From the NCBI GenBank assembly GCA_000004985.1, contig GG738854.1: 64,000 nucleotides of DNA; one strand, 5' to 3'. This DNA comes from Naegleria gruberi. Lineage: Eukaryota. A program made the position numbers and the translations under genes. The notes under the pieces were generated by a model, which had not been told where the DNA came from, ran no database searches, and saw only the letters and a list, made by a program, of their open reading frames with translations. Positions 1 to 27,380 of this stretch are shown here, one piece after another; positions within the stretch are counted from its first letter, which is position 1, and each line of letters starts with the position of its first letter.

Positions 1-245
1 ATATATTTTAGTGAAATTCAATATTTTCACTAAAATCATCATCACCGCCAGATTTATATGATAATTTGGAAAACTTTCAATCTAGTATTGTTCAGCATGG
101 TCGATTCCATCAGGTAAAATTACTTCCGAATATTTTCCTATTGGTTATCATGATGATAGGTTCATGTATATTTTCAACATGTACATATACCATATCTCAA
201 CATGTACTTCACCAACTTGAAAAATGTCTTTCATCACTACTATTC
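1..245. repeat. Left arm of a large inverted repeat (diverged; copy B equivalent about 12290-12813)
   Basis: Positions 30-245 are the reverse complement of 2510-2720, diverged to about 70-80% identity. The core ctcaacatgtacttcaccaacttg matches perfectly for 24 bp, and actaaaatcatcatcac matches for 17 bp. In copy B the inverted arm extends at least 500 bp (12290-12813 vs the reverse complement of 15073-15568). Confidence 0.7.
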
Positions 246-1476
246 AAATAGATAATAAACAATATATTTATTATCAGATTTTTATCATTTTGTGTTTTTG
301 CCAATTTCGGGTTATTCATGGTCACCAATCATGATCCATGCCAAAAGTACACAGCCAATCATCTTGAAACATTAATAAACTTTTATTAGTATTATTGTAG
401 GTGTACTATATAAATTATTTCGTCTTGTTTCGTTGAAATCATGAAGATTTGGATTTTTCTGTTTTTCATTAAATTTCACATCACCTACACCATATTTGTT
501 GATGTAAACTAGACTAGTTACATGTACATAATCAATGGTTGATTCTCTAATCATGTTTTAGTGTTGTTTTGTGTATTTAGGATTTTGAAATCTTGCGAAT
601 TATCCTGAGGTTATTCTTCATATAAATATGATTCCTCACTTCATGATATGAGGAGGGATTGATATCATGATTATTTGGAAGTGTTGTACAAATTTTGGAC
701 ACTATCTTAATTGAAATCAGGTAGAAAGAGTCCAATCTTTAACACCATATAAAATATGACTTGTGGCGATGGTTTTGACCTTGTTGTTCATACCTCCAAC
801 ATTGGAAAAGTAGAATGATAAACACCTTTTCTCATCATATTCAATATTTATGGAAGTTATGACCATAAGGATAAATTTCGCATGACCCAAGCATGCAGAT
901 TTTATTCGCCTAGATAAATTTCGCCTAAATTTTAGGCGAAATAAATCGCCTAGAACATAATCTCTTAAATAACCCAAATAAATCAACTCTGAATCCTAAC
1001 CAACCCCAAGCTCTCGCAGTATATGTTAGTAACTGCTACAAAAATTCATCATGGTACAATCGTCCCACTGACTCCTTCATCAAAAACAAAAAATACACTT
1101 CTGCTTACCAAAGGCAACAGCTGTCCCAACCACTTAGCCCGAACCAAACGTCCAAACACTGAACAGAACTAGATGGTTGAACAGCTAGTCTCTTATATCA
1201 TAACGAAGTAGATGTTGAAAAAGTTGGTTATCTTTGAAATTCAATTGATCTTAATGATGTTTAAGGAAATAAGGTTAATTGTTCGATTTAAGGTGAAAGA
1301 AATGAAATAAAAAGAAAAAACAAGAATTTTATTATTTTAATATCATTGTGTAATGTTCACAATGAGTTTGATAATTTTTGAATCACTCTTGAAGGAGTGA
1401 ATCATAAATAAAAGGTGTAAGTTTATTAATGTCTCTTGTATCAATAACGACCTGAGAGACCACACTTTTTCGGCAT

Positions 1477-2310
1477 TTAAGGACTCTGTGCAACATTTGA
1501 ATGATTTGGGTTAAGATTGAGTGCCGTTGAGTGAGTGTGCCTAAAGTAGGCGGATTGGAATTTTGAGTTTTTGATAAAAGGTTGTCGGGAGGGACGGTTG
1601 TACCACATAGTGTTTTTGTAACAATTTTCTAAATAAATGGCGAATGCCTTGTAAATTTCTAGAGCTACAGCCTTAGGAAGTCTTTTGTTCTTTGACCATA
1701 AGAGCCAGTCGCTGCGAGAGCAGCTTCCGTTAAAATCAATAATAAGGCAGTTCCTCACTTTGTCTGAAGGGAGACGAATCGGATCGAGGTTAAATTTGGA
1801 GGAAATATTGTCCCAAGTAGCATACAGTTCCTGTTTTTCATGGTTGCTTTTAGAGCACGATGAGAAAACGTGTGTCCAGTCTTCGGCAGTTTGACATGAA
1901 TCACAGGTTGTATTGTTATCTAGAATAATAGCGTGGTGAAGGTTTAGGAAAAGGAGTCTTTGTTGATAGTAGGAGAGATGGAAATTTCTCCAAAAGGAAA
2001 CAGTTGAAAGGTGCCAATTAAGATTTGAATCTAACTGGCCCAACTCTGAGATGGTTTTTTTGGATCTTTTGAGTTCAAGAATATCGTTTCGTAAGTTGGT
2101 GATGGGTTTGTGTGACGATCTGTCACAAAGAACCCATCCACTCTCTGTTGGATTGAAGTATGCATTGAGTTTGTTGATATTTAAGGCTGCATTTGTCCAG
2201 AGAGAGTCTGTAGATTTGCCTCGGAGAGCTTTTTGAATCGAGGCCCTTGCAATGTTGCGGGTGATTGTGGATGAGGAGTTCACAAATCTACAGACCGATG
2301 CTGTGCATTC
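1477..2310 (-). mobile_element. Degenerate non-LTR (LINE-like) retrotransposon 3' fragment, 5'-truncated
   Basis: The minus-strand ORF 1477-2541 contains C-D-S-C-x4-E-D-W-T-H-V-F-S-S-C-x13-W. This is the Cys/His pattern of the reverse-transcriptase zinc-binding (zf-RVT-like) tail found at the C-terminus of non-LTR ORF2 proteins. No intact RT motifs are recognisable upstream. The 5' end of the ORF runs into an 83-bp tandem duplication. Confidence 0.4.
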
Positions 2311-2314
2311 AATG

Positions 2315-2480
2315 TCTAACACATCTACAGGAGACGTGACTAGAAATCTCTCTCCAAGCCAAAACACAAAATAATGAAAAACTGATATTAAATATGGTCT
2401 AACACATCTACAGGAGACGTGGCTAGAAATCTCTCTCCAAGCCAAAACACAAAATAATGAAAAACTGATATTAAATATGG
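2315..2480. repeat. 83-bp direct tandem duplication (2 units); the same structure occurs at 14883-15048
   Basis: The unit tctaacacatctacaggagacgtgactagaaatctctctccaagccaaaacacaaaataatgaaaaactgatattaaatatggt is repeated twice head-to-tail with a single substitution (gtgactag/gtggctag). Confidence 0.85.
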
Positions 2481-2504
2481 TGTTTATTAGTGATTTAAAC
2501 AATA

Positions 2505-3000
2505 GTACTAGAAGAAAAGTATCCAAGTTGGTGAAGTACATGTTGAGTTATGGTCCATGTACTTTTTTGAAAATTCACATGTACCTATCCCTATCAAAAC
2601 TTGATGAAAATCCACCGTTCAAATTTACTATGCTACTATTGACCATTTCCAACAATCCTACATTAATAGTTTTCCAATCTTTCCAATGGATTCAACAGTG
2701 ATGATGATTTTAGTAAAATGTTGAGTTTCACCAAAATAAAGATATTTCCAAGACATAGAAATCACCCATACTATTCTACTATATTAAATATATCTATGAT
2801 GACGGTTGGTGAGTGTTCCGATGATGGTTTACCAACTTGAAAAATTATAATCCAAAAATTGATTTACTATTTTATGATGAAAGTCCAATAATAAAAATTA
2901 CTACTATTACTACTATTTAGATGATGTTGAGATGATGATGTGAAAGTTTGGCAGCTTACGGATGTGAAACCACTCGAAGAATCATCAAAGTACATCACGT
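2505..3000. repeat. Right arm of the inverted repeat (copy B equivalent 15073-15568)
   Basis: See the left-arm entry. The two arms flank a 2.27-kb core that holds the LINE fragment and the 83-bp duplication. The arm sequence belongs to a roughly 0.5-0.8 kb repeat family that recurs at 3290-3990. Confidence 0.7.
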
Positions 3001-3289
3001 ACTAGATATTGAAATATTTTTTCACATATTCTTAAATGAACAAACAAACCTTGCTTCAAATGGATGAATGACATGCTATGAGAAAAACAATAAAAACATG
3101 AAAATATCAGATATCCATGATTTTCACAAATTATGCTACAAGACTTGAAATTATACATTTAATAACATAATAAACATTATGAATTGTTGTTTTATTGTTG
3201 TTTGATTTGTAATTGGGCTATGAATCAACTCTGATAGCATCAAATATCGGAACTTGGTAAATTGACAACATGACGAAAATCTGATAATA

Positions 3290-3990
3290 AATATGATGTT
3301 TATTATCTGTTTAAATAGTAGTACTAAAAGACATGATTCAAGTTGGTGAAGTACATGTTGAGTTATAGTCCATGTACTTTTTCAAAATTCACATGTACCT
3401 AACCCTATCATAACTTGACCAAAATTGATAAGAGAAAATTCTCTTACCTACTATTGACCATTCCGAACAATACTACATTGACAGTTTTCCAACTTGTCCA
3501 GTAGATCCAGCAGTGATGATGAATTTAGTGAAAATTTTGACATTTCACCAAAATTACATTACTAAAAATTAATTTCCACAAATACTATTATTATATTGAT
3601 GGGAAACAATAATGATGATGGTTGGTGAATGATCCGATGATGGAACACCAAATTGTGATTTTCCATCATGAAAAATAACTTCCAATTTCATGATGATAAT
3701 CCACCAATAAAAATTACTATTATTACTACTATATAGATCATGTTGAGATGATGATGTGAAAGTTTGGTGGTTTTATGATGTAAAACCACTCCGAAAATCA
3801 TCATGTCCTCCTTGAGTAGATTTTATTTTTAGCCAACAAATTTTTTTTTGTGAAACCAAAGAAAAATCTTTACATAATTTTTCCAAATCATGATTAAATT
3901 CCAAAAGTTACTAGTAATACTATTATTTAAATCATGATGAGATGATGTGGTGAAATTCTTGGAGTTAATAGATGTGAAACTACTCAAAGA
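3290..3990. repeat. Additional direct, diverged copies of the arm repeat family
   Basis: Positions 3290-3560 are about 80% identical to 2480-2720 (gttggtgaagtacatgttgagttat..., ttgaccatt.c.aacaat.ctacatt.a.agttttccaa). Positions 3700-3800 and 3890-3990 repeat the tactattactactat...gatgatgtgaaagtttgg...gaaaccactc motif seen at 2900-2990. The inverted copy is at 12300-12400. Confidence 0.7.
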
Positions 3991-4520
3991 ATCAACAGTC
4001 GTGATGGACTGCTTGTTGCCAATATTTTTGAAATATTTTTGTTCCAGAAATTGAATTCCATTTAATGACTTCCAACATTGAATAAAGTAATATTTTGAAA
4101 CTAATTTTCTGATTATGTTATTGGAGTTGGTTAGTAGAGAGTTTTCTTAGTGTTTTCTGTAAAACACAATACCACGGTTTATGGTTATGATACATTACAG
4201 ATGGATAATATAGTTTATTTTTCAGTAACACTCTAACGTCGACACATTGGTCCCAACTTGTATTAATGTCCTGATAAGGTCATTTCTGGAATTTTGGAAC
4301 AAATAATTTTAAAACAGATATGTAAAATAAAGATTGTTTTGAAATAAAATGCAAAAATCGGTAATCCCTGACCTGTTGAACACATCAACCATTTGGCCAC
4401 ACGCTAAGCTGAAGGCTTCTTTTTGTATGCGTTACGTCTGTATTTGGCTAGCAAATAGATTTCGCACATATGTTTGTTGGAGTGGATAATAATTTGTTTT
4501 AAAATTATTATTGTAAAAAA

Positions 4521-6580
4521 ATGAACTTCGTTATAGTTATCCTTCTTTGCGTTTTTTTTGTAGTGCCAGTAAATACACAAACCCTGCTTTACAACATTAC
4601 CACTGTTGTTGGTGGGGGTAATGTTGGTGATGGTTTAGTTGCAACAAGTGCTAAATTATATTATCCTTCTGGAATTGCCATCAGTTCAAGTGATGAAACT
4701 TATATTGCTGATACAAACAATCATAGAATTCGTAAAATCACAACATCTGGTATAATTTCAACAATTGCTGGAAATGGAACAGCAGGATATAGTGGTGATG
4801 GTTCATCTGCAAAAAGTGCTCAATTATATTATCCTTCTGGAGTTGCCATCAGTTCAAGTGATGAAATTTATATTGTTGATAGAAGCAATAATAGAATTCG
4901 TAAAATCACAACATCTGGTATAATTTCAACAATTGCTGGAAATGGAACAGCAGGATATAGTGGTGATGGTCATCTGCAACAAGTGCTCAATTATATTTTC
5001 CTTCTGGAATTGCCATCAGTTCAAGTGATGAAATTTATATTGCTGATACAAACAATAATAGAATTCGTAAAATCACAACATCTGGTATAATTTCAACTAT
5101 TGCTGGAACTGGAGGGTATATGTTGGTGATGGTTTAGTTGCAACAAGTGCTAAATTATATTATCCTTCTGGAATTGCCATCAGTTCAAGTGATGAAACTT
5201 ATATTGCTGATACAAACAATCATAGAATTCGTAAAATCACAACATCTGGTATAATTTCAACAATTGCTGGAAATGGAACAGCAGGATATAGTGGTGATGG
5301 TTCATCTGCAAAAAGTGCTCAATTATATTATCCTTCTGGAGTTGCCATCAGTTCAAGTGATGAAATTTATATTGTTGATAGAAGCAATAATAGAATTCGT
5401 AAAATCACAACATCTGGTATAATTTCAACAATTGCTGGAAATGGAACAGCAGGATATAGTGGTGATGGTTCATCTGCAACAAGTGCTCAATTAAATTCTC
5501 CTTCTGGAATTGCCATCAGTTCAAGTGATGAAATTTATATTGCTGATATGTTCAATAATAGAATTCGTAAAATCACAACATCTGGTATTATTTCAACAAT
5601 TGCTGGAACTGGAACATCAGGATATAGTGGTGATGGTTCATCTGCAACAAGTATTCAATTATATTTTCCTTATGGAGTTGCAGTAAGTCTAAGTGATGAA
5701 ATTTATATTGCTGATATGTTCAATAATAGAATTCGTAAAATCACAACATCTGGTATCATTTCTACAATTGCTGGTGGTATAGGCGATGGACTATCAGCAA
5801 CTACAGCTTACATTAATGCCATTACGTTCGAATTTTCCTCAAGTGGTGAAATTTATATTGCTGATACAAACAATCATAGAATTCGTAAAATCACAACATC
5901 TGGTATAATTTCAACAATTGCCGGAACTGGAACATCAGGATATAGTGGTGATGGTTCATCTGCAACAAGTGCTCAATTAAATTCTCCTTATGGAATTGCT
6001 ATCAGTTCAAGTGGTGAAATTTATATTGCTGATACAAACAATAATAGAATTCGTAAAATCACAACATCTGGTATAATTTCAACAATTGCTGGAACTGGAA
6101 CACAAGGATATAGTGGTGATGGTTCATCTGCAACAAGTGCTCAATTATATAATCCTTATGGAGTTGCCATCAGTTCAAGAGGTGAAATTTATGTTGCTGA
6201 TTACAATAATAACAGAATTCGTAAAATCACAACATCTGGCATTATTTCAACAATTGCTGGAACTGGAACATCCGGCTATAGTGGTGATGGTTCATCTGCA
6301 ATAAGTGCTCAATTATATAATCCTTATGGAGTTGCCATCAGTTCAAGTGATGAAATTTATATTACTGATACAAACAATAACAGAATCAGAAAACTTAGTC
6401 CTTGGTGCACTGGAAATGCCATTCTTTTAGATGGATCTTGTGAGTATCCATGTTTTGGAACTACAAACAAAATTCCAGCTGTTGTATGCTCTGGAAAAGG
6501 TTCATGTATTGGCTATAATCAATGCAATTGCACAGCTGATTACTTTGGTTACAAATGTGATGAATTTTATTGCTATGAGT
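4521..6580 (+). CDS. 5' part of an NHL-repeat/EGF receptor-kinase paralog, frame-disrupted and ending in an N-gap
   Basis: It starts with a signal peptide, [21 protein letters not shown]. It then carries at least 11 tandem NHL-type repeats of about 56 aa (168 bp), of the form [53 protein letters not shown]. It ends in the first EGF-like repeat, CEYPCFG...CDEFYCYE, at the gap. The reading frame breaks at about 4975, where ggtgatggtcatctg replaces ggtgatggttcatctg (a 1-bp deletion). It breaks again at about 5110, where a roughly 0.5-kb internal tandem duplication (5117-5500 copying 4610-4990) joins. The last 460 bp are nearly identical to 18720-19190. Confidence 0.55.
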
Positions 6581-6648
6581 NNNNNNNNNNNNNNNNNNNN
6601 NNNNNNNNNNNNNNNNNNNNNNNNNNNNNNNNNNNNNNNNNNNNNNNN

Positions 6649-7128
6649 AACCCAAACCCAAACCCAAACCCAAACCCAAACCTTAACCCAAACCCAAACC
6701 CAAACCCAAACCCAAACCCAAACCCAAACCCAAACCCAAACCCAAACCCAAACCCAAACCCAAACCCAAACCCAAACCCAAACCCAAACCCAAACCCAAA
6801 CCCAAACCCAAACCCAAACCCAAACCCAAACCCAAACCCAAACCCAAACCCAAACCCAAACCCAAACCCAAACCCAAACCCAAACCCAAACCCAAACCCT
6901 AAACCCAAACCCAAACCCAAACCCAAACCCAAACCCAAACCCAAACCCAAACCCAAACCCAAACCCAAACCCAAACCCAAACCCAAACCCAAACCCAAAC
7001 CCAAACCCAAACCCAAACCCAAACCCAAACCCAAACCCAAACCCAAACCCAAACCCAAACCCAAACCCAAACCCAAACCCAAACCCAAACCCAAACCCAA
7101 ACCCAAACCCAAACACAAACCCACACAC
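6649..7128. repeat. Telomeric repeat tract (CCCAAA)n, i.e. (TTTGGG)n on the G-strand
   Basis: About 78 perfect 6-bp units of aaccca/cccaaa, with a few variants (ccttaaccc, ccctaaaccc) and the distal end cccaaacacaaacccacacac. It is preceded by the 68-N gap (6581-6648). Confidence 0.9.
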
Positions 7129-10100
7129 TATTGATACCATTGTGTTCACAATTGAAAATCTAGTCGATTGATATTAGTTTCATCAATTGGTAATATTAAT
7201 ATGGTCAATTAGGGTATCTCAAAGTCAATTTTGAAAAACTAAGAGTAGCTATATAAAATGTCTAATAAATCATAATTATATATCAAAACTGATATCAAAA
7301 TGCTTCAAATTACATATATAACATGATAGAATTGAAATAAATATCATATCTCATATTAAATATTGAGATAGTCAATTAAGGTACCTCAATATGGAAGTAC
7401 CCTAAGGATAATGAGATTCATTACCAAATTGATACAATATGTTATTAACATCATATAATGATGTTCCTATCAATTTCATATCATTTGGACATCATTCAAC
7501 ATTCATGTCATTCAACCATGTCAGCAACTACTCATGGCAATATGAAAAGTCAATATCAAGAGTTGCAACAAGATAGAGTATCATACCACTACTCTTATAA
7601 TTGATATTGATAACGTTTCTGAGTGATAGAAATCAATATCTATATAATTGGAATATCTGCCAAGCTACTGTCCTAATTGATCAAAGGTATCATTCTTACA
7701 TGTCAATAATGGTAAGAATCAATACCAATTCAATATTATCATGTTATAATCATCATATACTCTCNNNNNNNNNNNNNNNNNNNNNNNNNNNNNNNNNNNN
7801 NNNNNNNNNNNNNNNNNNNNNNNNNNNNNNNNNNNNNNNNNNNNNNNNNNNNNNNNNNNNNNNNNNNNNNNNNNNNNNNNNNNNNNNNNNNNNNNNNNNN
7901 NNNNNNNNNNNNNNNNNNNNNNNNNNNNNNNNNNNNNNNNNNNNNNNNNNNNNNNNNNNNNNNNNNNNNNNNNNNNNNNNNNNNNNNNNNNNNNNNNNNN
8001 NNNNNNNNNNNNNNNNNNNNNNNNNNNNNNNNNNNNNNNNNNNNNNNNNNNNNNNNNNNNNNNNNNNNNNNNNNNNNNNNNNNNNNNNNNNNNNNNNNNN
8101 NNNNNNNNNNNNNNNNNNNNNNNNNNNNNNNNNNNNNNNNNNNNNNNNNNNNNNNNNNNNNNNNNNNNNNNNNNNNNNNNNNNNNNNNNNNNNNNNNNNN
8201 NNNNNNNNNNNNNNNNNNNNNNNNNNNNNNNNNNNNNNNNNNNNNNNNNNNNNNNNNNNNNNNNNNNNNNNNNNNNNNNNNNNNNNNNNNNNNNNNNNNN
8301 NNNNNNNNNNNNNNNNNNNNNNNNNNNNNNNNNNNNNNNNNNNNNNNNNNNNNNNNNNNNNNNNNNNNNNNNNNNNNNNNNNNNNNNNNNNNNNNNNNNN
8401 NNNNNNNNNNNNNNNNNNNNNNNNNNNNNNNNNNNNNNNNNNNNNNNNNNNNNNNNNNNNNNNNNNNNNNNNNNNNNNNNNNNNNNNNNNNNNNNNNNNN
8501 NNNNNNNNNNNNNNNNNNNNNNNNNNNNNNNNNNNNNNNNNNNNNNNNNNNNNNNNNNNNNNNNNNNNNNNNNNNNNNNNNNNNNNNNNNNNNNNNNNNN
8601 NNNNNNNNNNNNNNNNNNNNNNNNNNNNNNNNNNNNNNNNNNNNNNNNNNNNNNNNNNNNNNNNNNNNNNNNNNNNNNNNNNNNNNNNNNNNNNNNNNNN
8701 NNNNNNNNNNNNNNNNNNNNNNNNNNNNNNNNNNNNNNNNNNNNNNNNNNNNNNNNNNNNNNNNNNNNNNNNNNNNNNNNNNNNNNNNNNNNNNNNNNNN
8801 NNNNNNNNNNNNNNNNNNNNNNNNNNNNNNNNNNNNNNNNNNNNNNNNNNNNNNNNNNNNNNNNNNNNNNNNNNNNNNNNNNNNNNNNNNNNNNNNNNNN
8901 NNNNNNNNNNNNNNNNNNNNNNNNNNNNNNNNNNNNNNNNNNNNNNNNNNNNNNNNNNNNNNNNNNNNNNNNNNNNNNNNNNNNNNNNNNNNNNNNNNNN
9001 NNNNNNNNNNNNNNNNNNNNNNNNNNNNNNNNNNNNNNNNNNNNNNNNNNNNNNNNNNNNNNNNNNNNNNNNNNNNNNNNNNNNNNNNNNNNNNNNNNNN
9101 NNNNNNNNNNNNNNNNNNNNNNNNNNNNNNNNNNNNNNNNNNNNNNNNNNNNNNNNNNNNNNNNNNNNNNNNNNNNNNNNNNNNNNNNNNNNNNNNNNNN
9201 NNNNNNNNNNNNNNNNNNNNNNNNNNNNNNNNNNNNNNNNNNNNNNNNNNNNNNNNNNNNNNNNNNNNNNNNNNNNNNNNNNNNNNNNNNNNNNNNNNNN
9301 NNNNNNNNNNNNNNNNNNNNNNNNNNNNNNNNNNNNNNNNNNNNNNNNNNNNNNNNNNNNNNNNNNNNNNNNNNNNNNNNNNNNNNNNNNNNNNNNNNNN
9401 NNNNNNNNNNNNNNNNNNNNNNNNNNNNNNNNNNNNNNNNNNNNNNNNNNNNNNNNNNNNNNNNNNNNNNNNNNNNNNNNNNNNNNNNNNNNNNNNNNNN
9501 NNNNNNNNNNNNNNNNNNNNNNNNNNNNNNNNNNNNNNNNNNNNNNNNNNNNNNNNNNNNNNNNNNNNNNNNNNNNNNNNNNNNNNNNNNNNNNNNNNNN
9601 NNNNNNNNNNNNNNNNNNNNNNNNNNNNNNNNNNNNNNNNNNNNNNNNNNNNNNNNNNNNNNNNNNNNNNNNNNNNNNNNNNNNNNNNNNNNNNNNNNNN
9701 NNNNNNNNNNNNNNNNNNNNNNNNNNNNNNNNNNNNNNNNNNNNNNNNNNNNNNNNNNNNNNNNNNNNNNNNNNNNNNNNNNNNNNNNNNNNNNNNNNNN
9801 NNNNNNNNNNNNNNNNNNNNNNNNNNNNNNNNNNNNNNNNNNNNNNNNNNNNNNNNNNNNNNNNNNNNNNNNNNNNNNNNNNNNNNNNNNNNNNNNNNNN
9901 NNNNNNNNNNNNNNNNNNNNNNNNNNNNNNNNNNNNNNNNNNNNNNNNNNNNNNNNNNNNNNNNNNNNNNNNNNNNNNNNNNNNNNNNNNNNNNNNNNNN
10001 NNNNNNNNNNNNNNNNNNNNNNNNNNNNNNNNNNNNNNNNNNNNNNNNNNNNNNNNNNNNNNNNNNNNNNNNNNNNNNNNNNNNNNNNNNNNNNNNNNNN

Positions 10101-11217
10101 NNNNNNNNNNNNNNNNNNNNNNNNNNNNNNNNNNNNNNNNNNNNNNNNNNNNNNNNNNNNNNNNNNNNNNNNNNNNNNNNNNNNNNNNNNNNNNNNNNNN
10201 NNNNNNNNNNNNNNNNNNNNNNNNNNNNNNNNNNNNNNNNNNNNNNNNNNNNNNNNNNNNNNNNNNNNNNNNNNNNNNNNNNNNNNNNNNNNNNNNNNNN
10301 NNNNNNNNNNNNNNNNNNNNNNNNNNNNNNNNNNNNNNNNNNNNNNNNNNNNNNNNNNNNNNNNNNNNNNNNNNNNNNNNNNNNNNNNNNNNNNNNNNNN
10401 NNNNNNNNNNNNNNNNNNNNNNNNNNNNNNNNNNNNNNNNNNNNNNNNNNNNNNNNNNNNNNNNNNNNNNNNNNNNNNNNNNNNNNNNNNNNNNNNNNNN
10501 NNNNNNNNNNNNNNNNNNNNNNNNNNNNNNNNNNNNNNNNNNNNNNNNNNNNNNNNNNNNNNNNNNNNNNNNNNNNNNNNNNNNNNNNNNNNNNNNNNNN
10601 NNNNNNNNNNNNNNNNNNNNNNNNNNNNNNNNNNNNNNNNNNNNNNNNNNNNNNNNNNNNNNNNNNNNNNNNNNNNNNNNNNNNNNNNNNNNNNNNNNNN
10701 NNNNNNNNNNNNNNNNNNNNNNNNNNNNNNNNNNNNNNNNNNNNNNNNNNNNNNNNNNNNNNNNNNNNNNNNNNNNNNNNNNNNNNNNNNNNNNNNNNNN
10801 NNNNNNNNNNNNNNNNNNNNNNNNNNNNNNNNNNNNNNNNNNNNNNNNNNNNNNNNNNNNNNNNNNNNNNNNNNNNNNNNNNNNNNNNNNNNNNNNNNNN
10901 NNNNNNNNNNNNNNNNNNNNNNNNNNNNNNNNNNNNNNNNNNNNNNNNNNNNNNNNNNNNNNNNNNNNNNNNNNNNNNNNNNNNNNNNNNNNNNNNNNNN
11001 NNNNNNNNNNNNNNNNNNNNNNNNNNNNNNNNNNNNNNNNNNNNNNNNNNNNNNNNNNNNNNNNNNNNNNNNNNNNNNNNNNNNNNNNNNNNNNNNNNNN
11101 NNNNNNNNNNNNNNNNNNNNNNNNNNNNNNNNNNNNNNNNNNNNNNNNNNNNNNNNNNNNNNNNNNNNNNNNNNNNNNNNNNNNNNNNNNNNNNNNNNNN
11201 NNNNNNNNNNNNNNNNN

Positions 11218-12010: not shown

Positions 12011-12568
12011 TACCCATCCACGATCAATCAACATTAGATTCACTGACCGGACCTTTAAATATCTATCAATATAAGAAATGAAACCATCAAATTTACATCA
12101 TTTATAGATGATAAGAATTATAATCAATGATATCAATCTTCACTAAGTAATCTGTTATAGGCGAAAAAAAACTGCCTGACAAACCATGCAAAAAAAACTG
12201 TTCGCATAATTAAGCTATGCGAAAAATATCTTTGGACATACCGATCCTTAGTTATAATCAATCAACAAGAACTTGGAAAAATAGTTCAAAAATATTGACA
12301 ACAAGTAAGTCCATCACGACTCTGTTGATTCTTGGAGTAGTTTCACATCTATTAATTTTAAGAATTTCACCACATCATCTCATCATCATTTAAATAGTAG
12401 TATTAATAGTAATTTTTGGAATTTAATTGTTCATCATGATTTGGAAATAATTTTATTATTTGGAAAAATTCAAGTTGGTACATCATCATCGGAACAACTA
12501 CCAACCATCATCATTGTTATTTACCATCATTATAATAGTAATATTTGTGGAAATAAATCTGATAATAA

Positions 12569-15500
12569 TAATATTTTAGTGAAATTCAATATTTTCACTA
12601 AAATCATCATCACCGCCAGATTTATATGATAATTTGGAAAACTTTCAATCTAGTATTGTTCAGCATGGTCGATTCCATCAGGTAAAATTACTTCCGAATA
12701 TTTTCCTATTGGTTATCATGATGATAGGTTCATGTATATTTTCAACATGTACATATACCATATCTCAACATGTACTTCACCAACTTGAAAAATGTCTTTC
12801 ATCACTACTATTCAAATAGATAATAAACAATATATTTATTATCAGATTTTTATCATTTTGTGTTTTTGCCAATTTCGGGTTATTCATGGTCACCAATCAT
12901 GATCCATGCCAAAAGTACACAGCCAATCATCTTGAAACATTAATAAACTTTTATTAGTATTATTGTAGGTGTACTATATAAATTATTTCGTCTTGTTTCG
13001 TTGAAATCATGAAGATTTGGATTTTTCTGTTTTTCATTAAATTTCACATCACCTACACCATATTTGTTGATGTAAACTAGACTAGTTACATGTACATAAT
13101 CAATGGTTGATTCTCTAATCATGTTTTAGTGTTGTTTTGTGTATTTAGGATTTTGAAATCTTGCGAATTATCCTGAGGTTATTCTTCATATAAATATGAT
13201 TCCTCACTTCATGATATGAGGAGGGATTGATATCATGATTATTTGGAAGTGTTGTACAAATTTTGGACACTATCTTAATTGAAATCAGGTAGAAAGAGTC
13301 CAATCTTTAACACCATATAAAATATGACTTGTGGCGATGGTTTTGACCTTGTTGTTCATACCTCCAACATTGGAAAAGTAGAATGATAAACACCTTTTCT
13401 CATCATATTCAATATTTATGGAAGTTATGACCATAAGGATAAATTTCGCATGACCCAAGCATGCAGATTTTATTCGCCTAGATAAATTTCGCCTAAATTT
13501 TAGGCGAAATAAATCGCCTAGAACATAATCTCTTAAATAACCCAAATAAATCAACTCTGAATCCTAACCAACCCCAAGCTCTCGCAGTATATGTTAGTAA
13601 CTGCTACAAAAATTCATCATGGTACAATCGTCCCACTGACTCCTTCATCAAAAACAAAAAATACACTTCTGCTTACCAAAGGCAACAGCTGTCCCAACCA
13701 CTTAGCCCGAACCAAACGTCCAAACACTGAACAGAACTAGATGGTTGAACAGCTAGTCTCTTATATCATAACGAAGTAGATGTTGAAAAAGTTGGTTATC
13801 TTTGAAATTCAATTGATCTTAATGATGTTTAAGGAAATAAGGTTAATTGTTCGATTTAAGGTGAAAGAAATGAAATAAAAAGAAAAAACAAGAATTTTAT
13901 TATTTTAATATCATTGTGTAATGTTCACAATGAGTTTGATAATTTTTGAATCACTCTTGAAGGAGTGAATCATAAATAAAAGGTGTAAGTTTATTAATGT
14001 CTCTTGTATCAATAACGACCTGAGAGACCACACTTTTTCGGCATTTAAGGACTCTGTGCAACATTTGAATGATTTGGGTTAAGATTGAGTGCCGTTGAGT
14101 GAGTGTGCCTAAAGTAGGCGGATTGGAATTTTGAGTTTTTGATAAAAGGTTGTCGGGAGGGACGGTTGTACCACATAGTGTTTTTGTAACAATTTTCTAA
14201 ATAAATGGCGAATGCCTTGTAAATTTCTAGAGCTACAGCCTTAGGAAGTCTTTTGTTCTTTGACCATAAGAGCCAGTCGCTGCGAGAGCAGCTTCCGTTA
14301 AAATCAATAATAAGGCAGTTCCTCACTTTGTCTGAAGGGAGACGAATCGGATCGAGGTTAAATTTGGAGGAAATATTGTCCCAAGTAGCATACAGTTCCT
14401 GTTTTTCATGGTTGCTTTTAGAGCACGATGAGAAAACGTGTGTCCAGTCTTCGGCAGTTTGACATGAATCACAGGTTGTATTGTTATCTAGAATAATAGC
14501 GTGGTGAAGGTTTAGGAAAAGGAGTCTTTGTTGATAGTAGGAGAGATGGAAATTTCTCCAAAAGGAAACAGTTGAAAGGTGCCAATTAAGATTTGAATCT
14601 AACTGGCCCAACTCTGAGATGGTTTTTTTGGATCTTTTGAGTTCAAGAATATCGTTTCGTAAGTTGGTGATGGGTTTGTGTGACGATCTGTCACAAAGAA
14701 CCCATCCACTCTCTGTTGGATTGAAGTATGCATTGAGTTTGTTGATATTTAAGGCTGCATTTGTCCAGAGAGAGTCTGTAGATTTGCCTCGGAGAGCTTT
14801 TTGAATCGAGGCCCTTGCAATGTTGCGGGTGATTGTGGATGAGGAGTTCACAAATCTACAGACCGATGCTGTGCATTCAATGTCTAACACATCTACAGGA
14901 GACGTGACTAGAAATCTCTCTCCAAGCCAAAACACAAAATAATGAAAAACTGATATTAAATATGGTCTAACACATCTACAGGAGACGTGGCTAGAAATCT
15001 CTCTCCAAGCCAAAACACAAAATAATGAAAAACTGATATTAAATATGGTGTTTATTAGTGATTTAAACAATAGTACTAGAAGAAAAGTATCCAAGTTGGT
15101 GAAGTACATGTTGAGTTATGGTCCATGTACTTTTTTGAAAATTCACATGTACCTATCCCTATCAAAACTTGATGAAAATCCACCGTTCAAATTTACTATG
15201 CTACTATTGACCATTTCCAACAATCCTACATTAATAGTTTTCCAATCTTTCCAATGGATTCAACAGTGATGATGATTTTAGTAAAATGTTGAGTTTCACC
15301 AAAATAAAGATATTTCCAAGACATAGAAATCACCCATACTATTCTACTATATTAAATATATCTATGATGACGGTTGGTGAGTGTTCCGATGATGGTTTAC
15401 CAACTTGAAAAATTATAATCCAAAAATTGATTTACTATTTTATGATGAAAGTCCAATAATAAAAATTACTACTATTACTACTATTTAGATGATGTTGAGA

Positions 15501-15624
15501 TGATGATGTGAAAGTTTGGCAGCTTACGGATGTGAAACCACTCGAAGAATCATCAAAGTACATCACGTACTAGATGTTGAAATATTTTTTCACATATTCT
15601 TAACTGAACAAACAAACCTTGCTT
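12569..15624. repeat. Segmental duplication copy B (same block as 1-3056)
   Basis: Same ORF set as 1-3056 shifted by 12568 (66/12634, 1477/14045, 2477/15045). The sequence runs upstream into the left inverted arm at 12290-12568. Confidence 0.85.
14045..14878 (-). mobile_element. Second copy of the LINE-like 3' fragment, inside duplication copy B
   Basis: Identical 354-aa minus-strand ORF (14045-15109) with the same zf-RVT-like motif. Confidence 0.4.
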
Positions 15625-15991
15625 CAAAAAATCAACCAAACTCTCGTAATACCTTGCTTGGTTTTCGTTCCAACAATTCAAGCCAAACAACACAAGAGAA
15701 TCTATTTAATATAATTGGAAAATTCAATTGTATAAATGTATCATTCAATTTATCGGTGTTACTAAGGTTGTGCATTTTCCATTTTGGTTTACCGTCATCA
15801 GTATTAAGCGGATGCTCTTCTCCCGTCTTTAGTAAGAAACTGAGTGTTCTCCGTCTCATCCGTCCCCCGTTTCACCGTCACTTAGTACCATCTCTACAGG
15901 ATTTCTTGTAGCTCCTTTTTCAACAGAAAAAAAGAATTATTTAATAAGTTGTGCTCATTGTTGTAAGAATCATTCCTCATCTGAAACAATA

Positions 15992-16206: not shown

Positions 16207-17601
16207 NNNNNNNNNNNNNNNNNNNNNNNNNNNNNNNNNNNNNNNNNNNNNNNNNNNNNNNNNNNNNNNNNNNNNNNNNNNNNNNNNNNNNNNNNNNNNN
16301 NNNNNNNNNNNNNNNNNNNNNNNNNNNNNNNNNNNNNNNNNNNNNNNNNNNNNNNNNNNNNNNNNNNNNNNNNNNNNNNNNNNNNNNNNNNNNNNNNNNN
16401 NNNNNNNNNNNNNNNNNNNNNNNNNNNNNNNNNNNNNNNNNNNNNNNNNNNNNNNNNNNNNNNNNNNNNNNNNNNNNNNNNNNNNNNNNNNNNNNNNNNN
16501 NNNNNNNNNNNNNNNNNNNNNNNNNNNNNNNNNNNNNNNNNNNNNNNNNNNNNNNNNNNNNNNNNNNNNNNNNNNNNNNNNNNNNNNNNNNNNNNNNNNN
16601 NNNNNNNNNNNNNNNNNNNNNNNNNNNNNNNNNNNNNNNNNNNNNNNNNNNNNNNNNNNNNNNNNNNNNNNNNNNNNNNNNNNNNNNNNNNNNNNNNNNN
16701 NNNNNNNNNNNNNNNNNNNNNNNNNNNNNNNNNNNNNNNNNNNNNNNNNNNNNNNNNNNNNNNNNNNNNNNNNNNNNNNNNNNNNNNNNNNNNNNNNNNN
16801 NNNNNNNNNNNNNNNNNNNNNNNNNNNNNNNNNNNNNNNNNNNNNNNNNNNNNNNNNNNNNNNNNNNNNNNNNNNNNNNNNNNNNNNNNNNNNNNNNNNN
16901 NNNNNNNNNNNNNNNNNNNNNNNNNNNNNNNNNNNNNNNNNNNNNNNNNNNNNNNNNNNNNNNNNNNNNNNNNNNNNNNNNNNNNNNNNNNNNNNNNNNN
17001 NNNNNNNNNNNNNNNNNNNNNNNNNNNNNNNNNNNNNNNNNNNNNNNNNNNNNNNNNNNNNNNNNNNNNNNNNNNNNNNNNNNNNNNNNNNNNNNNNNNN
17101 NNNNNNNNNNNNNNNNNNNNNNNNNNNNNNNNNNNNNNNNNNNNNNNNNNNNNNNNNNNNNNNNNNNNNNNNNNNNNNNNNNNNNNNNNNNNNNNNNNNN
17201 NNNNNNNNNNNNNNNNNNNNNNNNNNNNNNNNNNNNNNNNNNNNNNNNNNNNNNNNNNNNNNNNNNNNNNNNNNNNNNNNNNNNNNNNNNNNNNNNNNNN
17301 NNNNNNNNNNNNNNNNNNNNNNNNNNNNNNNNNNNNNNNNNNNNNNNNNNNNNNNNNNNNNNNNNNNNNNNNNNNNNNNNNNNNNNNNNNNNNNNNNNNN
17401 NNNNNNNNNNNNNNNNNNNNNNNNNNNNNNNNNNNNNNNNNNNNNNNNNNNNNNNNNNNNNNNNNNNNNNNNNNNNNNNNNNNNNNNNNNNNNNNNNNNN
17501 NNNNNNNNNNNNNNNNNNNNNNNNNNNNNNNNNNNNNNNNNNNNNNNNNNNNNNNNNNNNNNNNNNNNNNNNNNNNNNNNNNNNNNNNNNNNNNNNNNNN
17601 N

Positions 17602-18074
17602 AACCCAAACCCAAACCCAAACCCAAGGGCAAACCCAAACCCAAACCCAAACCCAAAGCCAAACCCAAACCCAAACCCAAACCCAAACCCAAACCCAAAC
17701 CCAAACCCAAACCCAAACCCAAACCCAAACCCAAACCCAAACCCAAACCCAAACCCAAACCCAAACCCAAACCCAAACCCAAACCCAAACCCAAACCCAA
17801 ACCCAAACCCAAACCCAAACCCAAACCCAAACCCAACCCAAACCCAAACCCAAACCCAAACCCAAACCCAAACCCAAACCCAAACCCAAACCCAAACCCA
17901 AACCCAAACCCAAACCCAACCCAAACCCAAACCCAAACCCAAACCCAAACCCAAACCCAAACCCAAACCCAAACCCAAACCCAAACCCAAACCCAAACCC
18001 AAACCCAAACCCAAACCCAAACCCAAACCCAAACCCAAACCCAAACCCAACCCACCCAAACCCAACCCAAACCC
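17602..18074. repeat. Telomeric repeat tract (CCCAAA)n joined directly to coding sequence
   Basis: About 78 units of CCCAAA with sparse variants (cccaagggc, cccaaagcc, cccaaccca). It is preceded by the N-gap 16207-17601 and is followed immediately at 18075 by in-frame NHL-repeat coding sequence (t caa tta tat aat cct tat gga gtt gcc...). Confidence 0.9.
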
Positions 18075-21000
18075 TCAATTATATAATCCTTATGGAGTTG
18101 CCATCAGTTCAAGTGATGAAATTTATATTGCTGATACAAACAATCATAGAATTCGTAAAATCACAACATCTGGTATTATTTCAACAATTGCTGGAACTGG
18201 AACAGCAGGATATAATGGTGATGGTTCATCTGCAACAAGTGCTAAATTATATTTTCCTTATGGAGTTGCCATCAGTTCAAGTGATGAAATTTATATTGCT
18301 GATATGGATATGTTCAATAATAGAATTCGTAAAATCACAACATCTGGTATTATTTCAACAATTGCTGGCGGTATAGGCGATGGACTATCAGCAACTACAG
18401 CTTACATTAATGCCATTACGTTCGAATTTTCCTCAAGTGGTGAAATTTATATTGCTGATACAAACAATCATAGAATTCGTAAAATCACAACATCTGGTAT
18501 CATTTTAACAATTGCTGGAACTGGAACACAAGGATATAGTGGTGATGGTTCATCTGCAACAAGTGCTCAATTAAATTCTCCTTATGGAGTTGCCATCAGT
18601 TCAAGAGGTGAAATTTATATTGCTGATACAAACAATAACAGAATTCGTAAAATCACAACATCTGGCATTATTTCAACAATTGCTGGAACTGGAACATCAC
18701 GGCTATAGTGGTGATGGTTCATCTGCAACAAGTGCTCAATTATATAATCCTTATGGAGTTGCCATCAGTTCAAGTGATGAAATTTATGTTGCTGATTACA
18801 ATAATAACAGAATTCGTAAAATCACAACATCTGGCATTATTTCAACAATTGCTGGAACTGGAACATCCGGCTATAGTGGTGATGGTTCATCTGCAATAAG
18901 TGCTCAATTATATAATCCTTATGGAGTTGCCATCAGTTCAAGTGATGAAATTTATATTACTGATACAAACAATAACAGAATCAGAAAACTTAGTCCTTGG
19001 TGCACTGGAAATGCCATTCTTTTAGATGGATCTTGTGAGTATCCATGTTTTGGAACTACAAACAAAATTCCAGCTGTTGTATGCTCTGGAAAAGGTTCAT
19101 GTATTGGCTATAATCAATGCAATTGCACAGCTGATTACTTTGGTTACAAATGTGATGAATTTTATTGCTATGAGTTGTTGAGAAATCACTCTGGTGTTTG
19201 TTCATCCCAAGGTATTTGTACTTCTCCCAATGAGTGCTCTTGTTCATCCGGTTATTATGGGGAAAATTGCCAATACTTTTATTGCCACTCTATTCCGTTC
19301 AACTCTTCTACAGTATGTTCGTCAGTAGGAACTTGTATTGGATTGAATAATTGCTCGTGTAATCCAGGATATTCAGGGTCGTATTGCCAAGACTTTACTT
19401 GTTATGGTGTTAGTTCTAAAAACACTACCGTATGTTCTTCTCATGGCACGTGTACATCTCTAAATAATTGCTCTTGCGTTACTGGTTATTATGGAAATAA
19501 TTGCGAGAATTTTGAATGTTTCGATATTCTTTTCACTAATTCTACAGTTTGTTCTAGCAGAGGAAAATGTTTCTCTCCTAACAATTGTACATGTGATTCT
19601 GGATATTATGGATCTAATTGTGAAATGTATGATTGTTATGGATTGTCCAAAAACAGTTCTAATGTATGTTCAGGGCATGGAAGTTGTACTTCATTCAATA
19701 ATTGTACATGTAGAGATGGTTACTTTGATTCTAAATGTGAGTCATTTAATTGTGCCGGAGAGAAATTCACTGGTCAAAGTCTTTGTCAAAATAATGGAAC
19801 TTGTTCTGGCCCTGGAAATTGTGTTTGTCCATATAAGTTTGGAGGAGCAAGATGTGAATATTTTAAATGTTTTTCAGTGACAGCCAACGAACCAAAAGTA
19901 TGCGGAGGACATGGTACATGTCTCAACTATAACAATTGTTCTTGCTCAGAAAAGTGGTTTGGAGAAGATTGTTCAGTTACTAATTGTTTTAATATAACAT
20001 CAAATTCTAGTTCTGTATGTGGTGCTAGAGGAAATTGTAGTGATTATGACAGGTGTACTTGTAATAATGGTTATATTGGTAGAGAATGTGAACATATTGT
20101 TTGTTATGACAGGATTGAAAGTGATAGAATGGTTTGCTCTGGAAATGGTAAATGTATATCACCAAATAATTGTACATGTGAAAGTGGTTTTGTTGGAAAT
20201 GAATGTCAATATCATGAAATTTATTTGAACACATCATCTGCAATGATATTTTCTTTCCATGATAGTCTAATGAAAATGTTGCCAAATGGCAGTGAAATAT
20301 TTTCATGTAATGATATTTTTGAAGAATCTGAACTAATGAAATTTGGCGAAAATTCTATTTTATGTCAATGGAGAAAGAAATCAATGCAAATTTATCTTGG
20401 TTTTGATTACACAATTCAACATTACTCGGTTATTCAAACCAAATTTAATTTTTCAATGATTGTGAACAGTTTAACCAATAATGATGTTTCTTCTTCCAGT
20501 TGTACATTTGGATACTCATTAACAGAAGCATCACCAATGTTAGATTTAGTAATACGTTTGAATTGTGATGATACTTTACATGGATTCACGAAAATGACAA
20601 GTAGATGGATATGTAGTCAATGTAGTGGCGTTATTTCATCATTGTTAAACAAATATTCCAATAGAACATTTATTCATATTCCAATTTCATATACAAACAG
20701 TTTAAACCCTATTCAAGGATATAAGATTATTAATTTACAAGCTCTTTATTCATCTGGAGTGACTAGTGAAAAATCAATAAGTAAGGAAGTGAAGATACAA
20801 ACCTATACAAAATCATTACCCCCTAGTTATTACTGGTTAAGTGATAATTTTGACGGAAAGGCATATTCCTGTATTGGTCATAATTGTATTTTAGAAACTT
20901 CATTGAATAGTTTAAATTCTTCAATTTCATATTCATTTTCTGGCTTTTTCAGTTTATTGAATACTGATTTATATTCCAAACAAATGGTTAGAATGATTAA

Positions 21001-24000
21001 TGAATATTCAGGAGGAGTTTTAGACAGTGAATTTAATTCTAATATGCAAGTTTTTGGAGTTCAATTGAAAACATATGTTTTCTTACCTTTTACTATTGAC
21101 TCTTTTAAATATTCTACATTTAAAAATTTGGATTTCGTAATGACAGGTGTTAATAGAACCTATTCTATCAACTCTGATGAAACAATACGTATTGAGCTAA
21201 TGATTGATGATCCTTATATTTCCAAATATACTTTAAGTGATTATATGGAGTTTTCTTGGCAATGTTTCAAAGTTTCACCTTTCAACAAATCTCAACATTT
21301 AAGTGATAACTTGTGCTCTTCTACTAAATCTTATCTTGAACAAATAGATATTAAGCAAATAATGTCTTCAAAAGAAGGTTCTTATTATATTACTGCTTTA
21401 ATATCCTCCAATAAGTATTTTATAACAACAGTTTATCATTATGAAGGTTATATTGAGTTCTTAGATATTTCAAAGCTCTCTCCAAAAATAACTACAGATT
21501 ATATACCAGCAATTACACCTTCCCATAAGAATATTTATATGAGAAATGTAGTGAAATCTTCAACAATGGTTTCATTTATATGGAAACTCAAACAAGGATA
21601 TTTAAATAATATTGATAATAATATTGAAGAATTTCTTCAAGATAATACAATTTACAGAACTATAATGGAAAATGATATTGAAATAATTTTAAAAATTGAT
21701 AACAAACATTTAATTGAAGGAGAGGTATACGAATTTGAATTGTCAACTACCAATTCAAACGGAATTACCACTATATCCATTTCAACTAGAATTGATTATA
21801 GTCCAAGATTATCCTGTGATGTAGAAAATTTGAAACATGATGTTAATTTTACAAGTTTTGAAACTTTGATAGGTATTAACTGCTTGAAATTACCATATGA
21901 AAGTATTTCAAGTTTTGTAATGGAATTTCATTCAAACAACGAAAGATTAGGTGTAATATCCAATACACCAAAGAAATCTTTGATAACAAAGCTACCGTAC
22001 CCATATTCTAAAGATGGTAGAATTGCTCTTGTCGTAAAACTTCAAAACTTATATGGTTCTATTGGAATTTTTAGAAAAAATATTAAGATTGAATTACCTA
22101 GTTATTTGTTAAATGACAATTCTATCCTATCAAGATTTAATTATATTTCAGATCAATTCCAAATTCTTAAAAATTCTAAACCACTCAAGATGGAAATTTC
22201 CAGTGAAATGAATAGTTTACTCACCCTCTTAATTCAAAATGAAACTCTTTCAACATTATCAGACAGCATTTTGAAAGAATTTAATCCAATGAAAATAAGT
22301 TCATTTAATTCAATGCTTGGTGATATGTTGAAAATAACAAAGAGTTTATGGGATATTACTTACAAAGTTGATGAAAGAGTTATTCAATTAACTTTACCAA
22401 TAATTTACAAGATTTCTAACATTTTAAAAACAACAATTAGTGATACTTCATCATTATCAACATTTAGTATTGAATTAGAAGCTTTTTTGGAATTAATTTA
22501 TTCAGGAATGAAGAAAGCACTTAATTATTATCCAACTTTCATTTATAATGATTTACTTGATAATTATCATTTAGAAGAAATTAAATCATTGCAAAATATT
22601 CTTGCAAATATCCATCAAAATAATTTAGATGAACAATATAAGATCCATAAATTTGCTTTAGAATATTTCAAGTTAACAGGGAATAATGGCGACAATTCAA
22701 GTTTTGTCGAAGATTTAGAATATTCATCTTTATTGAATGAGAAATCAATTTCACTCACAGTTTCCAACTTTAAAGTTGATATCAAATTGCCTAGTGACTT
22801 TTCTAGTCAAATTTCTCTAACTTCCAAATCTAAACTATTCTATTCTATTAGATCATTTAATTCTCCAACTAGACAGGAAACAACACTCCTGCAAAACAAA
22901 CCAATTGTAGATCTATCTCTGTTAGATACATCATACAATACAATCACAGTGAAAAATATTAATCCACCAATAATATTCAAATTTCAAGGCTTAATTACAA
23001 ACAACAAAACTGGTATTAACACTACTTGTGTTTTTTATGATACTACCTTAAAGATATGGTCAACTAGTGGACTTGAGACCTTAACAACAATTAACAAAAG
23101 AACAGATGACTATATTTACTTTGATATGGAATGTAGATCTAATCATTTATCAGTGTTTTCCATCCAAGAAATTAATTATAACTCTCCAATTGTGCAAACA
23201 TCTGGTTTATCATCTACAAGATCCGTTTCTAGTAATGATTCTATATTAATTATCATCTTATCTACAGTGTTGCCTATTACTTTTTTGATATTTGCTTTCA
23301 GTATTATTCTAATTGTCTTTATTATACTTTTATTTAGAAGCAAGCAAAAGAAAGCAAATGAACTTGCGAAAACTAATGCTAATAATATTGAACTTGAAGG
23401 TTTTTCGAGTACTGATTTCCCGACAGAAGGAAGTATGTTTATCCAACCTCTCATGAGCATTTCTTCAAATGGAACTACTAGCGAAGCTTTCAATCCTCTC
23501 TCTAGATATTCCAACTTGATAAGAATTGGTCAAGGAGCTTTCGGATCAGTCTTTAAGGCCTTTGATAGTAAAACAAATTCGGTGAAAGCTATCAAAGTCA
23601 TTAAATATTCTTCCATGGAAGAATTGAATAATTTTATGAAAGAAGGAACTCAATTAATGAATGTCAATCATCCCTATATTTTACGGGTGAATGAATTCTT
23701 TGTTAGTAAGGACCAATTACTTTGTATTGATATGGACTTTTATGAGCTGGGAGATTTAGTTAAGTTAACAAATATTGATTTTGATTGTTCTGAAAAATTG
23801 ATCAAACAAATAATTTATCAAATGTGTCAAGCTCTTGATTATATTCACTGTACTATGAAAATAATTCATAGAGATATCAAACCATCCAATGTTTTTGTGA
23901 AAAGCTTGGAAAAAGATAATATCCACATAATTGTGGCAGATTTTGGGTTAGCTAAATCTAATATTGGATCGACAAATAATTCCTATGCTGGTACTCCTAT

Positions 24001-27026: not shown

Positions 27027-27380
27027 TTTTTTTTAAAATTTTAATTCAAATATATCACTTGTCCTATTACACAACAAGTCATACTAATTTTTTGTACATC
27101 GTAAAAAAACTTGACCACTTTGAGAAATAGCCCAAGTGTCATCGAGTGCAATACAGTTTACAGAATTATGTGAGAAATAAAAGTTCGGTTCATGAAATAA
27201 TGATTAACAAATTGGTGTTGTAACGTTCAAAAAAAATTCAATGTTAAACAATCTAAATTTATGTCCCGTAAAATTACTTCCAACCTCCCTGGTAATGCGA
27301 ATAGTAGATAAGCTAAATGCATATTTGCAATGTTAACATCAGTGAGATGAAATAATTAACAAACTATAGTTTCTCATTAT

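Follow-up and report, generated by a model that had tools for sequence, protein, structure and literature searches.

The locus considered here lies near the start of a Naegleria gruberi scaffold (GenBank assembly GCA_000004985.1, contig GG738854.1), within a 64,000-nucleotide window that is the whole stretch of DNA analysed. It raises the question of whether a coding array of tandem units for NHL repeats has really changed in unit number and reading frame between its two copies (copy 1 at 4521-6580 and copy 2 from 18075) or has only been assembled as though it had. The explanation favoured here, at somewhat better than even confidence, is an error of consensus and scaffolding at a chromosome end that was split by haplotype, by which the window would carry two incomplete, overlapping images of one receptor kinase gene at the start of a draft scaffold. 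The main value of the analysis is for annotation, as it allows the gene model to be corrected and the scaffold to be flagged.

The NHL array of copy 1

Each ~168-bp unit encodes an NHL blade of 56 aa. In copy 1, Tandem Repeats Finder (TRF) detected a 168-bp period at 4625-6386 (10.6 copies, 81% matches, score 2267), and 10 units contain a perfect copy of a 26-nt anchor, AGAATTCGTAAAATCACAACATCTGG, with spacings of 168, 167, 164, 168, 168, 168, 150, 168, and 168. Together with a degenerate last unit at 6382, these give 11 blades, in agreement with the at least 11 units counted in an earlier, sequence-only reading of this DNA. The translation of 5122-6579 passes the Pfam thresholds for NHL (PF01436; E 5.5e-62, 203 bits, cut-off 20) and TEN_NHL (PF25021; E 2.7e-66, 224 bits, cut-off 27.1), and similarity to solved propellers was also found, as is characteristic of NHL-repeat beta-propellers.

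The very high identity that had been attributed to the units was somewhat overstated. The pairs A1 and A4, and A10 and B5, are identical and are the only such pairs; the standard units differ pairwise by 7-21 of 168 nt (88-96% identity), and the A7/B2 unit deviates by ~45 nt. The ratio of non-synonymous to synonymous differences (pN/pS) among the units is ~0.77, with the changes clustered at a few positions. Because the units are homogenised, this value does not tell a live gene from a recent pseudogene, and it is compatible with homogenised units that have few variable surface residues. Intragenic gene conversion or recent duplication may keep the 168-bp units alike, and such homogenisation would explain both the invariant 26-nt stretches and the identical tract of 373 bp described below.

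The internal re-duplication

The internal re-duplication of ~0.5 kb that had been noted in copy 1 was recovered by alignment, with 100% identity between 4621-4994 and 5120-5494 and one T absent at 4970/4971 as the sole difference. Across the 2 x 373 bp, this amounts to zero substitutions and one indel.

One way to account for this tract is that the re-duplication is false, two read stacks of the same three blades (from the two haplotypes, for example) having been joined head to tail by a spurious overlap. The true array would then consist of 8 units, and the two frame breaks of copy 1 would be artefacts of the join. Such perfect identity over 373 bp, when all other unit pairs of copy 1 differ by at least 7 nt, agrees with this explanation, as do a re-duplication period of 499/500 bp, which is divisible by neither 3 nor 168, the aberrant linker at the junction, and the larger near-identical duplication in the same scaffold (3-3060 and 12571-15628). 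However, when units were counted with a hidden Markov model built from the Naegleria unit, the 120 best homologues had 12 units in 61 cases and 11 in 49, and none of them had 8. In addition, 11 units, the number assembled here, are found in P0126 (a bacterial metagenome protein of 875 aa), whose NHL units lead straight into EGF-like modules. Since 11-12 units are usual in these homologues, and P0126 has 11, the array as assembled plausibly fits the family, and one of 8 units, with the re-duplication removed, would not. The 125 bp that follow the identical tract also differ between its two passes, which shows that a distinct third blade exists. A false duplication of the three blades is thus unlikely.

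Copy 2 as a truncated image

Copy 2 has anchors at 18148, 18322, 18472, 18640, and 18809 and a last unit at 18977, giving 6 blades, and on this account it had been described as an array with fewer units. This description does not stand. The region 5486-6580 aligns in register with 18074-19175 (95.9% identity), so that copy 2 corresponds to the last 6 units of copy 1, and the shared part has 6 units in each. On its left side, copy 2 is cut by the (AACCCA)79 tract at 17602-18074, which itself follows the N gap at 16207-17601, and the upstream part is absent; the junction at 18074/18075 reads ...CCCAACCCAAACCC in the telomere tract, followed directly by TCAATTATATAATCC in the array. The sequence-only reading had missed that the copies abut telomere-repeat blocks and gaps, which is why copy 2 looks shorter. 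Its apparent shortness is truncation at a contig/telomere boundary, not contraction of the array, and copies 1 and 2 are a 5' fragment and a 3' fragment that overlap by 1.1 kb.

Within the overlap, the differences are 38 substitutions, one 6-bp in-frame insertion, and one 1-bp insertion, and they become denser toward the 5' side. The 38 substitutions fall within ~700 bp, in a mosaic pattern and far above the level of the flanks, and the final 398 bp are identical (6183-6580 and 18778-19175). Copy 2 has unit variants and mosaics that are not found in copy 1.

The three frame breaks

The coding frame of copy 1 is mod3=0 from 4521 to ~4970, mod3=2 to ~5116, and mod3=1 over 5122-6580, which confirms the two breaks previously reported in this copy and places them at 4971 and in the linker at 5099-5132. 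All three frame segments are stop-free in their own frame and have perfect blade sequence. The 1-bp frameshift reported at about 18697 in copy 2 is also present, as the frame changes at ~18697-18700, within a linker of 39 nt where 38 nt are usual. Linkers that maintain the frame have 29, 38, or 23 nt.

Break 1 is located 23 bp from the right edge of the 373-bp perfect repeat, and the linker of break 2 sits 1-3 bp to the left of the second repeat copy. This second linker resembles a join of GGAACTGGA with GGGTAATGTTGG of the first unit, giving GGAGGGTATATGTTGG, and it is still out of frame after removal of the extra T. The linker of copy 2 resembles an overlay of genuine variants, ACATCAGG over ACATCCGG, giving ACATCACGG. 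All three breaks fall inside the ~2.9 kb of repeat, and the 5.3 kb of adjacent non-repeat open reading frame (ORF) has none.

These breaks bear on the contingency-like instability that had been proposed as one explanation of the locus, taken here as an adaptive array in which frequent switching of unit number and frame would vary a surface receptor or silence it. A tandem coding array beside telomere repeats, with mosaic differences between its copies and a pN/pS of ~0.77 with changes at few positions, is what such a locus might look like. However, neither repeat-number changes that shift the frame nor differing repeat numbers between the copies were found. The unit has 168 = 3 x 56 bp, so gain or loss of units preserves the frame, the unit number is equal in the shared part, and the breaks are single-base events outside simple-sequence tracts and not changes in unit number. 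From general structural knowledge, propeller closure also restricts blade number, as a closed beta-propeller tolerates little change in it. Contingency-like instability is therefore highly improbable for this array.

Scaffold context

The window, eukaryotic sequence with a G+C content of ~33%, is a scaffold with three N runs (6581-6648, 7765-11217, and 16207-17601). Each AACCCA tract begins exactly at the edge of an N gap and continues rightward into unique or gene sequence, and both are internal to the scaffold as assembled. A candidate telomere repeat of N. gruberi is TTTGGG (PMC3622300), and both tracts consist of this repeat with the C-rich strand leading inward to unique DNA, in the orientation of a left chromosome end. 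The positions of variant repeats differ between the tract at 6649-7123 and the one at 17602-18074, and the inner repeats are degenerate in both. Other sources considered for the sequence were set aside: a ciliate (Paramecium has TTTGGG/TTGGGG telomeres), given the ~1800 codons open under the standard code and the GTAAGT..AG intron, and dictyostelids, given their TTAGGG or TAAGGG repeats. Candidate TTTGGG tracts of the N. gruberi draft can thus be scaffold-internal beside gaps, which is a flag for mis-joins of chromosome ends.

The first contig carries a block duplicated upstream of copy 2, and the homology of the two blocks breaks off abruptly at 3060/15628. The block at 12571-15628, otherwise near-identical, has no counterpart of window positions 1-2, suggesting that the window start is a contig start; this start is probably also the scaffold start at a chromosome end. 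The spacing from the duplicated block to the NHL/EGF part is near-equal in both copies (offsets 12568 and 12588), which fits haplotypes or ambiguous mate pairs and, equally, a true tandem duplication.

In the duplicated block there is an ORF of 356 aa (1480-2547 and 14048-15115, both on the minus strand) without a Pfam match, which includes an 83-bp unit repeated twice with 98% identity (2314-2481; 14882-15049). A dispersed repeat of ~550-780 bp, with 72-91% identity and in both orientations, was found at 2444-2991, 3265-4040, 12277-12866 (minus strand), and 15012-15559; it is confined to the first 16 kb, and the first contig apparently begins inside one of its copies.

Origin of the breaks and of the two images

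Judged from the sequence, the breaks are most likely errors, the two images haplotypes, and the contigs mis-scaffolded. The 6.6-kb contig holds the 5' end of the gene and all 11 units, ending in the first EGF-like module, and the 46-kb contig holds the last 6 units and the remainder of the gene, with the telomere-repeat tract as its left end. The two images would most likely be the haplotypes of a heterozygous diploid, or otherwise very recent paralogues. Naegleria has been described as mainly a heterozygous diploid (PMC9928731), and haplotype-specific contigs would accordingly have about half the read depth. The haplotypes would have been assembled apart over those parts in which the arrays differ and merged over the identical ones, and the contigs then chained with two other small contigs via ambiguous mate pairs. 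The three frame breaks would most likely have arisen as consensus errors in thinly covered, repeat-confused sequence; they look like assembly problems because they are found at perfect-repeat edges or in linkers, amid small contigs, gaps, and telomere tracts. The assembly error that the sequence-only reading had offered as its second explanation is therefore favoured, with the exception that short reads are probably the wrong cause, as the NEG-M reference of N. gruberi is a Sanger draft of ~8x.

Some observations weigh against this explanation. Units with 88-96% identity are in a range that Sanger reads can normally resolve, and a gene-conversion tract ending between 29- and 38-nt linkers would give the same hybrid linker. 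With a real telomere junction, moreover, copy 2 would be a dead fragment able to carry a real frameshift. The mosaic of 38 substitutions in ~700 bp, far above the flanks, indicates that the arrays truly differ, and they could be paralogues instead of alleles.

An explanation by real decay of a chromosome end would take the junction at face value: a break of the chromosome, or of one homologue, inside the NHL array would have been healed by TTTGGG, leaving a 5'-truncated gene, and the other image would be a 5' fragment near a telomere tract. Conversion between non-equivalent blades would then have made the out-of-frame linker, and the single-base indels would be real pseudogene mutations. The orientation of both tracts as left chromosome ends, with inner repeats degenerate like those of natural telomeres, is consistent with this, and the differing variant positions argue that the tracts are independent of each other. 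The unit variants present in copy 2 and absent from copy 1 point the same way, as does the 34-nt linker, which the extra T alone does not put out of frame. On the other hand, decay would have to place all three disruptions inside ~2.9 kb of repeat and none in 5.3 kb of non-repeat ORF, and to produce one indel yet zero substitutions over 2 x 373 bp. A telomere internal to the scaffold would also have to be interstitial, and both tracts begin at gaps, which makes their left joins uncertain. Real decay is for these reasons a tentative alternative, well short of an even chance. A more specific form of it, in which one homologue was broken in the NHL array of the receptor kinase and healed by TTTGGG while the out-of-frame linker of the other copy came from conversion between non-equivalent blades, is slightly more doubtful. 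If true, the window would show a receptor gene of a free-living amoeba in the course of being broken, healed, and converted at the end of a chromosome, and a real telomere junction in the array would provide a concrete case of chromosome healing for Naegleria. No independent copy of the locus was found in the metagenome contigs scanned with the 26-nt anchor.

The annotated protein

The translation of 5122-6579 is 100% identical to a record of 636 aa from a 665,159-bp scaffold, 'predicted protein [Naegleria gruberi]' (P0006; XP_002680154.1, EFC47410.1, NAEGRDRAFT_64360, UniProt D2V6A0). This model joins ...GYSGD to VATSAKL..., excising ~4970-5136 as a 167-bp 'intron' that is one whole stop-free blade and contains both frame breaks of copy 1. 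Its C-terminus, WYLKVNFEKLRVAI, maps to 7213-7256, and its last 'intron' crosses the 68-N gap and all of the (AACCCA)79 tract. The only protein record for this locus (XP_002680154.1 / D2V6A0) is a chimera joined by two invented introns, which bears out the earlier warning that the annotated protein is unreliable here. A look-up of contigs encoding P0006 returned no record.

For the 5.4-kb ORF of copy 2, no protein record was found in a collection of 5.8 billion sequences, searched with the ectodomain plus kinase and with the EGF part; the matches were limited to the copy 1 model, a paralogue of 42% identity, and distant kinases. A receptor kinase of ~2,400 aa, with NHL, EGF, ectodomain, and kinase parts, is thus without a protein record in that collection, and this locus would cause miscounts in any census of receptor kinases, NHL proteins, or bacterial-like domains in Naegleria.

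Gene architecture and features of the window

From its sequence, the locus is predicted to be a gene for a receptor Ser/Thr kinase with a signal peptide, 11 NHL blades, ~10 EGF-like modules, an ectodomain of ~1000 aa, one membrane span, and a kinase domain, the NHL array being its outermost, ligand-binding module. This architecture requires both contigs, as the signal peptide is found only in copy 1 and the kinase only downstream of copy 2. The catalytic motifs, a membrane span preceding them, and the signal peptide of copy 1 are those of a receptor-type Ser/Thr kinase. The ORF is open for ~1800 codons under the standard code. Downstream of its break, copy 2 has 5.3 kb open, and together with a second exon this encodes two more NHL blades, the EGF-like modules, the ectodomain, the span, and the kinase. 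The ectodomain at 20251-23248 had no Pfam match, and no homologue was found for it in the protein search. The coordinates of these features are collected in Table 1.

Table 1. Features of the receptor kinase locus and its surroundings, with positions in the 64,000-nt window
Feature	Position	Strand	Basis and remarks
Upstream block, duplicated at 12571-15628	3-3060	+	3058 bp, 99.93% identity, 2 mismatches
Start codon, signal peptide, and N-terminal strand of copy 1	4521-4620	+	Open from 4521; same as start of XP_002680154.1
Copy 1 NHL array, 11 tandem units of ~168 bp as assembled	4621-6399	+	TRF, anchors, Pfam
Internal perfect repeat, first copy (blades 1-3, third partial)	4621-4994	+	373 bp, alignment
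Frame break 1, one T absent from GATGGTTCATCT	4970-4971	+	Unit spacing 167; frame 0 to 2
Frame break 2, aberrant 34-nt linker ATTGCTGGAACTGGA+GGGTATATGTTGGTGATGG	5099-5132	+	Unit spacing 164; frame 2 to 1
Internal perfect repeat, second copy (blades 4-6, sixth partial)	5120-5494	+	Alignment; A1 vs A4, 0 differences
First EGF-like module of copy 1, ended by gap	6400-6580	+	Translation, then N
N gap, 68 N	6581-6648		Sequence
(AACCCA)79 telomere-type tract	6649-7123	+	TRF; first part of 1.1-kb contig; inner-end repeats degenerate
Spurious last exon of XP_002680154.1	7213-7256	+	Peptide YLKVNFEKLRVAI maps here
AACCCA tract, ~79 copies	17602-18074	+	TRF; start of 46-kb contig; abuts blade-coding DNA directly
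Copy 2 NHL array, last 6 units only, without start codon or signal peptide	18075-18994	+	Anchors; collinear with 5486-6399
6-bp insertion GATATG, in frame, absent from copy 1	18301-18306	+	Alignment; unit spacing 174
Copy 2 frame break, 39-nt linker with extra base (ACATCaCGGCTAT)	18679-18717	+	Unit spacing 169; usual linker 38
~10 EGF-like modules, period 39 aa (117 bp)	18995-20250	+	Cysteine pattern; EGF_2 E 2.1e-38, EGF_TEN E 2e-30
Large ectodomain	20251-23248	+	ORF
Membrane-spanning segment	23249-23335	+	Sequence
Ser/Thr kinase domain, two exons (to 24007; 24049-24348)	23513-24348	+	Pkinase E 1.3e-33; catalytic motifs including DFG intact
Intron of 41 bp, GTAAGT..AG	24008-24048	+	Read from sequence

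The region 18698-24348 is the largest intact gene body of the region (~1870 aa). The EGF array at 19082-20200 is a second coding array, more diverged than the NHL units and missed by TRF.

Elsewhere in the window, 24459-27032 (minus strand) is a gene with a protein kinase domain and 10 DUF4116 repeats, with a 75-bp period detected by TRF at 24697-24837. A further protein kinase is located at 47453-49082 (plus strand) over two ORFs (47453-48472 and 48438-49082), presumably because of an intron or another frame problem. At 52910-63400 (plus strand), a single ORF of 3497 aa combines 22 bacterial Ig (Big_9) domains with a VWA domain and many domains of the cadherin-like type. This gives the amoeba genome an ORF built like the giant adhesins of bacteria. 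No RNA genes were found in the whole window by Rfam and tRNA scans.

Comparison with known systems

Among solved structures, the closest is that of a teneurin-like protein from bacteria (9ifo/9pt5, E 1.7e-94), and further structure matches include designed Pizza propellers, teneurin-2, SOQ1, TRIM71, and PknD. Apart from P0006, the 120 best homologues are apparently bacterial or metagenomic, with 38-57% identity across the array. The bacterial multi-NHL teneurin-like proteins (9ifo, 9pt5; PF25021, PF01436) have the same 56-aa unit, with the motif GYSGDGGPAT..P.G.A....G.IYIAD..N.RIRK. In contrast to them, the Naegleria array is fused to ~10 EGF-like modules and a large ectodomain, followed by a membrane span and a eukaryotic kinase, and its units are far more alike in DNA, which points to concerted evolution. 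In P0126, a signal peptide precedes the 11 NHL units, after which come 4 EGF-like modules; the protein shares the 'VAGGGVGDG' N-terminal start, and the ending of its last unit also matches the Naegleria protein. From this likeness, the NHL-EGF combination may be of bacterial origin. A positional match of the divergent A7/B2 blade to unit 8, likewise divergent, in one bacterial subfamily ('IGDGL') was suggestive and too weak to use.

PknD of Mycobacterium tuberculosis (1rwi; NHL match E 1.3e-20) likewise has an outer NHL propeller, one membrane span, and an inner Ser/Thr kinase. However, it has 6 blades, no EGF modules, and an N-terminal kinase, that is, the opposite domain order, and the likeness is taken as a functional analogy, with no claim of orthology. 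In N. gruberi itself, the paralogue XP_002670765.1 (NAEGRDRAFT_59621, P0159) has NHL blades, ~12 EGF-like modules, and a membrane span, with 42% identity in the EGF region. It differs in that its NHL blades number only 6, are diverged, and have EGF modules on either side, and in that the model has an extra N-terminal EGF module and no kinase.

In its contig structure, the locus resembles the false duplications and haplotype-split contigs of heterozygous drafts, with which it shares near-identical tandem blocks, gaps, contig ends at repeat edges, and frameshifts hidden by invented introns, and this is the analogy favoured here. The coding minisatellites of the yeast FLO/ALS type are likewise in-frame tandem units of surface proteins near a chromosome end, prone to unequal exchange and conversion. 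However, FLO/ALS arrays code for extended stalks in which any number of units is tolerated, whereas the Naegleria units are predicted blades of a closed propeller, with equal unit number in the shared part of the copies. The NHL array is a real and ordinary coding repeat of a known fold, and what is new among the known kinds is the combination of domains.

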